Source: Angelvirus px29
Lineage: Duplodnaviria > Heunggongvirae > Uroviricota > Caudoviricetes > Straboviridae
DNA length: 64,000 nucleotides
Virus record (IMG/VR): IMGVR_UViG_2700988902_000001
Location: 75,520 to 139,519 of that record
Reading direction: 5' to 3' (one strand)
The notes beneath the pieces were generated by a model. It made no database searches. It saw only the letters and a list, made by a program, of their open reading frames with translations, and had not been told where the DNA came from. This document shows, piece after piece, positions 16,092 through 25,742 of this stretch; position 1 is the stretch's first letter; each line of letters starts with the position of its first letter. The translations under genes were made by a program, and so were the position numbers.

Positions 16092-16386
16092 GTTCGTATT
16101 TCCAGTTTGCTTTGTGCAAAGCCTTGTGCATTTTAAAGTTGAAATCGTCTTTCTGTCTAGCCAGTTCTCGATTGAATGCGAACTCACTAGCACAGGCAAT
16201 CAACATCTTTTTGTCTTCTACCGCGTTAAACGGAGATTGTGCAACAAAGACAACTTTGTTTTGTTGATGCATTTCGTTGATATAACGACAAACCCGCTCG
16301 CCGTTGTCAAACAGTCGAGATAGATAGAGTCGTTGAAACTGAGATAATCGGACTTTCTTGTCCTTGTCAACGTCGATATAATGCAT
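16075..16386 (-). CDS. Hypothetical protein
   Basis: GAGG RBS. Confidence 0.6.
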   Translation of the reverse strand: MHYIDVDKDKKVRLSQFQRLYLSRLFDNGERVCRYINEMHQQNKVVFVAQSPFNAVEDKKMLIACASEFAFNRELARQKDDFNFKMHKALHKANWKYEHDSDD

Positions 16387-16406
16387 AGCATCACCTCAAA
16401 TGAATT

Positions 16407-17173
16407 TAGTGGCCCCGGTGGGAATCGAACCCACAACGAGCGGTTATTCTTTTAAGAACTCGATTATGGATTTTCCATTCTCCAATTCTTTAATTTGTGA
16501 ACTTTTAAGGACGATAAGGTTTTTAACGGACTTCCACTTACAACGATCTCGTTCACGCTCATAACCTTTAACCTCTATGTAAAGATCCATAGACGGTAGA
16601 TAAAAGTCCGGAAAATATAGATGTTCTCCGTTTTCCCAGCTATAAACGAAAGGAGTAATCTCGTTAGTGTATTCTATGTTAGCAGAACTTAGGCATTTTG
16701 CAACCAATAGTTCCCATTTCCCTTTAAATGTTTGTCCTTCAAACGCATACATCTTAACGCGACCAGATACGTTGTTTTGCTGTAAGAATCTGGGTTGTTT
16801 TTAACAACTTCCTTCATGACTTTCGAAAATTTAATTCTTTGTTCGTCCGTCCAAATGGTCTCATTCATACTCTTTGCGGCATCGGATAACTTTTTCTAGT
16901 CTCTTCCGAAATGACAGGTTTATCCAAACCAAGTCTGGTCGCTTTTGTGTATTGGTTTGTGCCTTTACATCCGAGTTTCGATGGAACGTGAAACTTTATT
17001 TTATTTTGGATTTTTGGAACAACGAACTTCGTGTTGTCTAAGTGAATTTTGTATTCTTACAGATTTTGTCGCAGTATGCGCAGTTCATTAGATTATCTCC
17101 TAGATTGTGTTATATCACTATTTATCTAAGAGATTGTGTGAGCCGCTTGCTTGAACCCTCTAGCTACGGGGCC
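16407..17173 (-). tRNA. tRNA-Ile2(CAT) interrupted in the anticodon (5' half 17139-17173, 3' half 16407-16446)
   Basis: Joined halves give GGCCCCG..AGCGG-CTCA|TAA-CCGCT..GTGGG-TTCGATT-CCCAC-CGGGGCC-A, resembling bacterial tRNA-Ile2. Confidence 0.8.
16444..17088 (-). mobile_element. PD-(D/E)XK-type homing-endonuclease-like gene (frameshifted) inserted in tRNA-Ile2
   Basis: CxxC/HxxxC N-terminus, SEETRKKLS repeat, YFPDFYLP..D.YIEVKG core; own ATAAATA promoter and AGGAG RBS; four single-base shifts in A-runs. Confidence 0.75.
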
Positions 17174-17213
17174 TTGTTTATAGGAACCATTATTACATAG
17201 TCCCTATTTGTTG

Positions 17214-17606
17214 TCAACCTTTAAGATTCAGTTTGTATCGAATAGAACTCATGAAACTCATGATGTCTTCCAACAGATTTACCAGATCGAAATGACGTTT
17301 GGTTTCCAGATACTCATGCACCATAGTACACTCTTGTAGGAAATTGTCAATCAACATTTCAACTTCAACTTCCGCATGTGACACAGAAAATGTCTGAGCA
17401 TAACCGCGAGCAATAGAAGCCTCAGCAAACGCATCTACCAACTCAGGTAAGCTTGTGTAATATTCGTTTAGTGCCATATGTCTGCTATAGACGGTCGTCA
17501 CCAGATGATTGTGGTGAACGTAGGCCACGCTTTTCAACAGCTTGCAGATTAGATCACCAACGCTTGAGTTCGTATCGCCTTTGAAATCTTTAAATGAACT
17601 ACTCAT
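17214..17606 (-). CDS. Ferritin/Dps-like conserved phage protein
   Basis: H..HL.T..YSRHMALNEYY..L..LVD.FAE pattern. Confidence 0.6.
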   Translation of the reverse strand: MSSSFKDFKGDTNSSVGDLICKLLKSVAYVHHNHLVTTVYSRHMALNEYYTSLPELVDAFAEASIARGYAQTFSVSHAEVEVEMLIDNFLQECTMVHEYLETKRHFDLVNLLEDIMSFMSSIRYKLNLKG

Positions 17607-25639: not shown

Positions 25640-25742
25640 TTGTCGAGGCGACTGGATTCGAACCAGCGACCGAGTGCTTCTTATGTGCTCTCGTAAAAGT
25701 TCATAAGAAGGCACTTGCTCTATCCGTCTGAGCTACGCCCCG
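25640..25742 (-). tRNA. tRNA-Arg(TCT) with a 26-nt insertion (25680-25705) after U36
   Basis: Removing the insert gives AGTGC-CTTCTAA-GCACT; Arg-type D-loop GGATA. Confidence 0.8.

Follow-up and report, generated by a model that had tools for sequence, protein, structure and literature searches.

A transfer RNA (tRNA) gene in the genome of Angelvirus px29, a T4-type phage, is broken in the middle of its anticodon by an endonuclease gene. What kind of element did this, and is the tRNA still made? The locus lies in a stretch of 64,000 nucleotides (nt), hereafter the window (IMG/VR record IMGVR_UViG_2700988902_000001, positions 75,520 to 139,519), of a genome of 222,006 bp. An earlier note, made from the sequence of the window, had described a tRNA-Ile2(CAT) gene split inside the anticodon by an endonuclease cassette without a ribozyme. 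The reading that we favour, with a probability of about 0.72, is that an intron-less homing-endonuclease cassette inserted in the anticodon of tRNA-Ile2(CAU) and inactivated a dispensable tRNA. Coordinates below are positions in the window, and the split locus is on the minus strand.

A tRNA gene split within its anticodon

The locus comprises the following features, given in the order in which they are transcribed.

17189 to 17217, minus strand: candidate sigma-70-type early promoter (TTGACA, 17 nt, TG-n-AATAAT), 16 nt before the tRNA 5' end
17139 to 17173, minus strand: 5' half of tRNA-Ile2(CAU), 35 nt (acceptor 5' strand, D arm, anticodon-stem 5' strand, C32-U33-C34-(A35))
16447 to 17138, minus strand: insert of 692 nt, a homing-endonuclease cassette without a ribozyme, not present in phages Aeh1, Ah1 and phiAS5
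17095 to 17134, minus strand: predicted leader hairpin with arms AUCUCUUAGAU (17134-17124) and AUCUAGGAGAU (17105-17095), the 3' arm covering AGGAG
16444 to 17088, minus strand: homing-endonuclease frame with a CCHC zinc finger, NUMOD3-like motifs and a T7-endonuclease-I-like nuclease domain, interrupted by four ±1 shifts
16447 to 16776, minus strand: last open piece of this frame (P0002, 110 amino acids), nuclease domain with WE...PDF...EVKG
16407 to 16446, minus strand: 3' half of the tRNA (U36-A37-A38, anticodon-stem 3' strand, 4-nt variable loop, T arm, acceptor 3' strand, A73, then CTA)

Re-reading of the sequence confirmed the coordinates, the ends of the halves and the 692-nt spacing given in the earlier note. 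The 5' half ends in CTCA and aligns with the uninterrupted gene of Aeromonas phage Aeh1. The 3' half opens with TAACCGCT at position 16446, contains the T arm GTGGG-TTCGATT-CCCAC, which is detected by Infernal with Rfam, and the acceptor strand CGGGGCC, and extends from A73 at 16410 to a CTA that ends at 16407. The position of the junction is ambiguous by one base, as it can be read CTC/ATAA or CTCA/TAA (after C34 or after A35). ARAGORN called no tRNA on the locus as deposited. When the two halves were joined in silico, the same program returned a 73-nt tRNA(cat) with a clean cloverleaf and the 7-nt loop CTCATAA, which bears out a split inside the anticodon. Its intron mode recovered the split gene with the 692-nt insert under the name tRNA-Val(cac), because the junction was set one base further 3'.

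Comparison with related phages, as the earlier note had suggested, revealed an uninterrupted tRNA(CAU) gene at the same place in the nearest public relatives, Aeromonas phages Aeh1, Ah1 and phiAS5, with the same promoter block and the same flanking genes. Phage PX29 is known as a close relative of Aeh1 (PMC2993671). The Aeh1 record labels its intact gene "similar to tRNA-Ile". In the joined halves, GGCCCCG pairs with CGGGGCC next to A73, and the pairs C4:G69 and C5:G68 are present; according to work attributed to Ikeuchi in 2005, these two pairs reportedly mark Ile2 rather than Met in E. coli. The intact alleles of the three phages and the GGCCCC acceptor with both pairs thus support the Ile2-type (CAU) identity proposed in the earlier note for the joined tRNA, for which lysidine-34 and charging with isoleucine are predictions only. 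A group of phage tRNA-Ile(CAU) has been described (PMC1524935).

All 23 tRNAs of the genome are located inside the window, and a second Ile2-type tRNA was found nowhere among them, so that what had been said of the window holds across the whole genome. The other two CAT tRNAs resemble fMet (1:72 mismatch, GGG/CCC anticodon stem) and elongator Met. Identity to Aeh1 was considered as a measure of constraint on the halves and rejected as uninformative: the split tRNA is 88% identical, and the other tRNAs of the pair range from 67 to 100%. The promoter block scores 11/12 with an extended -10 and is kept in all three relatives; consensus match, the sole basis for this assignment, suggests that it works as an early promoter.

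The insert carries a leader and a PD-(D/E)XK nuclease gene

The insert has a GC content of 36%, compared with 42% for the window, and consists of a 50-nt leader (17138-17089) and a single nuclease reading frame, with no 3' untranslated sequence. The leader carries ATAAATA (17125-17119) and AGGAG (17101-17097) ahead of the ATG (17088-17086), and the TAA stop of the nuclease (16446-16444) is at the same time U36-A37-A38 of the tRNA, all of which the earlier note had described and which could be re-read in the sequence. The 70-nt stretch around the hairpin (17076-17145) folds at -13.9 kcal/mol (z -3.0). The ATAAATA motif begins in the last bases of the 5' arm and runs into the loop; it matches 7/8 bases of the T4 late-promoter consensus.

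The last open piece of the nuclease frame, P0002, matches phrog_15137 ("endonuclease") at 7e-30 and PF05367 at 1.7e-4 (21.7 bits, below the cut-off of 29.1), and is 63-67% identical to homologues from Acinetobacter and E. coli phages. Full-length relatives have about 200-230 amino acids. An alignment of 49 sequences showed invariant G-R, W-E, Y, Y-x-P-D-F and E-x-K-G motifs and a later K, and the zinc-finger residues C, C, H and C are kept in at least 90% of its rows; matches to NUMOD3 and C2H2 are weak. The frame in the window, though broken, retains the zinc-finger residues and the invariant E, P-D and E-x-K. A profile of the 49 sequences matches T7 endonuclease I (PDB 1M0D) with an E value of 8e-6, and the catalytic residues E, PD and ExK fall in register, in agreement with the earlier assignment to the PD-(D/E)XK nucleases. 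An AlphaFold model of one family member (pLDDT 87.6) was compared with known structures using Foldseek: the best match was the catalytic domain of I-Bth0305I (PDB 3R3P; E 2.9e-3, probability 1.0), followed by Bax1, T7 endonuclease I (27% identity) and VRR-NUC. A search for a nuclease paralogue elsewhere in the genome found none. In a tree of the nuclease domain, the window groups with phages IME13, AM101 and IME341 (support 98/93); all four are T4-type phages, each with a different local arrangement of the gene.

An insertion of the same kind is present or absent in near-identical Acinetobacter phages

Acinetobacter phage AM101 carries an intact homologue of 209 amino acids, orf148, at the same anticodon position of a different tRNA(CAU) gene. 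This nuclease likewise ends on the TAA of the tRNA, and is among the homologues that are 63-67% identical to that of the window in the nuclease domain. The intact tRNA of phage AB-Navy1 equals the AM101 halves joined exactly, with identical exons and flanks that are 99% identical. The insert is present in 7 distinct Lazarusvirus records (6 named phages) and absent from more than 25 near-identical ones. Such a precise presence or absence between near-identical genomes is the signature of a homing element, as the earlier note had supposed for the cassette of the window. No other CAT tRNA was found in the annotated tRNA cluster of AM101; since AM101 is a cultured isolate, cultured phages can live with the split gene.

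Two other arrangements were seen in these phages. AM101 has a second annotated "homing endonuclease", orf142 (L100:7737-8464; L numbers denote the loci compared in this work), whose coding sequence has its last 10 nt in common with the start of tRNA-Trp, again the layout of a reading frame that ends inside a tRNA. It is not matched by the nuclease domain of the window in tblastn, and therefore probably belongs to another family. Directly upstream of the split or intact tRNA(CAT), Lazarusvirus loci also carry a tRNA with a CTA anticodon of the amber-suppressor type (L004:1042-1116 and L090:243-317), annotated as tRNA-Pyl or tRNA-TERM.

The insert matches no known intron

A search of positions 16200-17400 with Infernal against all of Rfam 15 at E≤10 returned no intron family, and no cryptic group I fold of the kind that the earlier note had considered; six related loci gave no intron family at E≤0.1. 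Whichever junction is taken, the last base of the 5' exon is C or A where a group I intron requires U, and the last base of the insert is A where it requires G, so that group I chemistry is unavailable. The AM101 insert, which ends in A or T, is likewise not group I-like. The start of the insert reads CACAA or ACACA as against GUGYG in group II introns, and no Rfam match was obtained for this class either. The absence of a group I or II core, previously proposed for lack of room, is thus borne out by the Rfam searches, by the boundary bases and by the length of only 50 nt outside the reading frame.

Inspection by eye, with no formal search run, revealed no bulge-helix-bulge or other conserved structure at the junctions. 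The insert lies at position 34/35 or 35/36 and not at the canonical 37/38. Concerning proteins that could rejoin a broken tRNA, the phage genome encodes an Rnl1-type RNA ligase. PNK3P (PF08645) was not matched in the genome, a model that may miss the T4-type enzyme. Among the sequencing runs listed as matching the locus none was an RNA run, and no run contained more than 0.46 of the sampled words.

A 26-nt insert in a tRNA-Arg(TCT) at 25640-25742 (minus strand) was considered as evidence of splicing and rejected. It looks like a conserved extended anticodon helix: here and in Aeh1 (L089:10405-10509), a tRNA-Arg(TCT)-like body has its anticodon loop replaced by a helix extension of 8-9 bp with the inner loop CTTT..ACGAGAG, and the helix shows compensatory changes between the two phages (TTATG/CATAA against TCCTGT/ACAGA). 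The element looks like a conserved tRNA-derived small RNA and not like an intron-bearing tRNA.

Nuclease genes of this family often lie beside CAT or TAT tRNA genes

The gene environment of the family was surveyed in 85 loci (80 from 260 related IMG/VR stretches and 5 from GenBank), which collapsed to 65 non-redundant loci. In 35 of these 65, a tRNA that can serve AUA (CAT in 31 loci, TAT in 4) starts between -95 and +45 nt from the nuclease stop. CAT and TAT tRNAs make up 35 of the 40 tRNAs that abut the gene, compared with 63 of the 298 tRNAs in the loci overall. The stop codon of the nuclease is T8-A9-G10 of the adjoining tRNA in 10 loci, and elsewhere U36-A37-A38 or a D-arm TAG. About half of the loci have a tRNA 5' piece ending in ...GGTTAGAGCA-N5-ACTC (at C34) directly before the leader, and sometimes the whole 5' half. 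In five loci where ARAGORN is blank beside the gene (L010, L013, L019, L025 and L031), an intact tRNA(CAT) lies just upstream.

Two loci, L030 and L059, have the nuclease gene and an intact tRNA together inside an older split tRNA: the old 5' half is followed by the leader with the nuclease gene, then by a complete tRNA(CAT) and last by the truncated 3' end of the old tRNA. A split tRNA that is dead, with an intact tRNA beside the gene, argues against splicing of the inserts of this family. The window has the bare form, with the insert alone and no intact tRNA adjoining it. An "intermediate" class with only a rebuilt anticodon arm (L048 and L062) was also considered and rejected, as both loci have a complete downstream tRNA.

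Leader hairpins are also predicted in L004, L005, L008, L030, L059 and L062, and the hairpin covers AGGAG or GGAG in 5 of the 8 leaders folded (window, L005, L059, L062 and L085). Motifs resembling ATAAATA were read by eye in the leaders of L004, L005, L030 and L059, and CTAAATA in L062. The CUC of the tRNA, together with one more C, pairs with the Shine-Dalgarno sequence in the L059 and L062 folds.

Several loci of the survey deserve separate mention. After the nuclease stop, L009, L020, L028, L033 and L051 have odd tRNA(CAT)-like sequences: the acceptor, the anticodon arm and the T arm are normal, but TATCGG or TATCGC replaces the D arm and about 20 nt (GAAAsCGTAAtTGGTcrCAt) occupy the variable region. 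CGG/CCG and CGC/GCG covary between these loci; ARAGORN is silent on them, and the Rfam tRNA model places L028 just above threshold. In phage IME341 (L005:1195-1891), the nuclease frame takes in the whole 5' half of a tRNA-Arg(TCT) that is itself complete, and its stop codon is U36-A37-A38 of that tRNA; given a tRNA fragment ending in CTTCTC upstream of the leader, this subgroup appears to have switched to another tRNA. Vibrio phage Kuja (L007:1140-1170) and Escherichia phage PhaxI (L008:1120-1150) carry unannotated fragments of 24-30 nt just upstream of the nuclease gene, which match what we take to be the first 24 bases of E. coli tRNA-Ile2 (exactly in Kuja, 23/24 in PhaxI); the annotated coding sequence of Kuja starts upstream and reads through the fragment. 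Finally, the 3' end of the nuclease homologue in a 224-kb IMG/VR contig (L069) overlaps a tRNA(CAT) on the opposite strand, an arrangement seen in no other locus.

State of the nuclease frame and fate of the tRNA

The nuclease frame of the window is shifted at four places, where one base has been lost (three times) or gained (once), always in a run of four or five A (17047-50, 17004-07, 16891-95 and 16775-78). There is no in-frame stop, and every family-invariant or near-invariant residue read off survives. Shifts affect 4 of the 18 A/T runs of at least 4 bases in the nuclease gene and 0 of 1,074 in 75 open frames of at least 300 amino acids, a comparison that is biased because these frames were selected for being open. 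Counted on both strands and with their overlaps, open reading frames of at least 80 amino acids cover 91% of the genome. Either the frame has decayed recently, or the deposited sequence contains homopolymer errors that were never corrected. Close relatives were sought by an exact-junction pattern search of viral contigs, which found none with the same insertion, by a frameshift-spanning pattern search of metagenome contigs, which found none, and by a protein search of metagenome contigs, where identity was at most 60%.

We propose the following course of events. The enzyme would recognise the conserved stretch from D arm to anticodon loop in AUA/AUG-type tRNA genes (GGTTAGAGCA-N5-CTC/ATAA) and cut the anticodon loop of genomes without the cassette, which would then be copied in during repair of the break. 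The cassette would carry only what is needed for its own expression: a hairpin that may mask the ribosome-binding site when transcription of the tRNA reads through, an ATAAATA resembling a late promoter where the hairpin loop begins, and a stop codon borrowed from U36-A37-A38. As the insert would never be removed from the RNA, the tRNA would be inactivated; its halves would be relics, probably still transcribed from the early promoter, and the nuclease gene would later have been inactivated in this phage by the four frameshifts. Such a loss could be tolerated because ATA is rare (8.1% of Ile codons and 5.5 per thousand codons in the long frames of the genome) and the host presumably supplies tRNA-Ile2.

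Several points weigh against this proposal. Both halves are perfect, with the acceptor, anticodon and T-stem pairs all intact and the A·A at 13:22 as the sole exception, and they are undamaged although the nuclease gene has four frameshifts; this fits either a recent event or ongoing selection on the halves. Since the shifts are all in A-runs and no conserved residue was lost, some or all of them could be homopolymer errors and not decay. The Rnl1-type ligase makes a repair-type rejoining of the halves chemically conceivable. To our knowledge, cleavage has never been demonstrated for this enzyme family.

These points lend some weight to alternatives. The nuclease gene could be intact in the real phage, the four shifts being base-calling errors, and the cassette a live homing element and not a relic. 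We consider this rather unlikely: the confinement of the ±1 shifts to short A-runs and the survival of the frame's invariant residues are what such errors would leave, but natural frameshifts also favour homopolymers, and the excess of shifted runs over the rest of the genome, biased as that test is, together with the 91% coverage by open reading frames, speaks against it. Another alternative is a protein-dependent tRNA intron, in which an endoribonuclease would cut both junctions and a kinase/phosphatase and Rnl1 would seal the ends into a working tRNA-Ile2. T4 Rnl1 seals breaks in tRNA anticodon loops, and the px29 genome has a ligase of this type; the halves are intact under a conserved early promoter, and AM101-type phages keep a split gene with no other CAT tRNA in the cluster. 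However, we know of no bacterial or phage endonuclease that cuts these two junctions, the junctions show neither a structure visible by eye nor the 37/38 position, and PF08645 is unmatched, with the limit on that model given above. Moreover, an intact tRNA accompanies the gene in most relatives and the old tRNA decays in L030 and L059, neither of which would be called for if splicing removed the insert. Altogether, protein-based removal of the insert appears improbable.

It is less probable still that the halves function unjoined, annealed as a nicked tRNA-like molecule or as separate small RNAs, for example decoys that draw off anticodon nucleases or defence proteins that bind tRNA. They are indeed complementary and intact, and the region has other tRNA-derived RNAs without a normal anticodon loop, such as that at 25640-25742. 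However, a break within the anticodon should abolish decoding as well as any recognition through the anticodon loop, the 692 nt between the halves would have to be trimmed off all the same, the old 3' half of L030 is truncated and many loci retain no more than a portion of the 5' half. A cryptic or novel self-splicing RNA that overlaps the reading frame is the least credible explanation and close to negligible. Anticodon-loop introns are known near this position in Azoarcus tRNA-Ile and Synechocystis tRNA-fMet, and some group I introns let reading frames overlap their core helices, but the Rfam searches and the bases at both junctions point away from one, only 50 nt lie outside the frame, and the inserts of the window and AM101 are alike at the protein level, with no common RNA structure seen beyond the leader hairpin. 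We therefore return to insertion followed by loss of the tRNA: because L030 and L059 have an intact tRNA and a truncated old 3' half, and many loci keep partial 5' pieces, the tRNA-Ile2 of the window is read as inactivated. The evidence favours a dead tRNA, without settling the matter.

Implications

The general view, as far as we know, is that homing endonucleases can settle in an essential or useful gene only if an intron or intein hides them. The known exception is mobE in the nrdA gene of Aeromonas phage Aeh1, reportedly described by Friedrich et al. in 2007 as an intron-less homing endonuclease that splits a gene; it works because two protein pieces reassemble. The present case would involve a whole nuclease family that inserts into tRNA genes without any such cover. 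The loci show one of two outcomes: the tRNA is sacrificed, as it seems to be in the window and AM101, or an intact tRNA stands directly beside the nuclease gene (35/65 loci), in L030 and L059 inside the old split tRNA. If the adjoining tRNA travels with the gene, insertion would be harmless without any splicing. If confirmed, this could explain part of the patchwork of phage tRNA clusters as well as the tRNA fragments or "pseudo-tRNAs" in phage annotations, and would offer enzymes that target a conserved tRNA-gene sequence. Should the split tRNA still be made, with an endoribonuclease and the phage tRNA-repair ligase removing the insert, which we have judged improbable, it would be a protein-spliced intron in a bacterial virus, and would be relevant to the question whether tRNA splicing by proteins exists in bacteria or their viruses.

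Comparison with known systems

A literature search found no description of a ribozyme-free endonuclease cassette in the anticodon of a T4-type phage tRNA, nor of a tie between the T7-endonuclease-I-type family and CAU tRNAs. To the systems already known, the locus and its relatives add a new nuclease family, cultured hosts with a clean presence/absence pair and a survey in which an intact tRNA adjoins the gene.

Like the cassette of px29, mobE in Aeh1 nrdA is a free-standing endonuclease gene, without intron or intein, inside a functional gene of a closely related phage. The nrdA halves reassemble as active polypeptides, whereas here the tRNA is broken in the anticodon without a known route of reassembly; the enzyme belongs to the HNH family there and to the T7-endonuclease-I type here. 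A review of mobile DNA in T4 phages lists the mobE of T4 only (PMC2988022). SegB of T4 is likewise encoded free-standing among the tRNA genes of a T4-type phage. This homing endonuclease recognises a site that takes in a conserved tRNA motif, and drives the spread of its own gene along with nearby tRNA genes (PMC2330249). It is a GIY-YIG enzyme that is directed to the T-psi-C stem-loop and encoded between tRNA genes, in contrast to the present PD-(D/E)XK family, which is tied to the CAU-type anticodon loop and, in the window and AM101, encoded inside the tRNA gene.

Group I introns occupy tRNA anticodon loops in Azoarcus tRNA-Ile(CAU) (PMC13168695) and in Synechocystis tRNA-fMet, the latter with the PD-(D/E)XK enzyme I-Ssp6803I (PMC3984707). 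They share with the px29 insert the kind of tRNA and nearly the same site, and the Synechocystis insert also has a PD-(D/E)XK homing endonuclease. Unlike these self-splicing ribozymes, the px29 insert lacks a ribozyme core, a terminal G and a U at -1. Homology of the nuclease domain links the family to T7 endonuclease I (1M0D) and I-Bth0305I (3R3P), of which the former is a junction resolvase without a zinc-finger or NUMOD3 module and the latter sits in a group I intron of a recA-like gene.

Expression of the nuclease may follow a known pattern. Endonuclease genes of the I-TevI type in T4 are controlled, as Gott et al. are said to have found in 1988, by a hairpin over the ribosome-binding site and by a late promoter. 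The px29 leader is similar in that a hairpin predicted from sequence and folding pairs with the Shine-Dalgarno sequence, with ATAAATA at its top, inside a gene that would be heavily transcribed early; it is different in that several relatives draw the anti-Shine-Dalgarno CUCC partly from C32-U33-C34 of the tRNA. Control of the I-TevI type has been reviewed (PMC2988022).

Lak megaphages have "enigmatic" tRNA introns (PMC6784885), which, like the insert described here, interrupt the anticodon loop of a phage tRNA and match no ribozyme family. The Lak introns were not linked to an endonuclease gene in that work and their host phages are different, whereas in the family surveyed here the nuclease gene is accompanied by an intact tRNA in most relatives.

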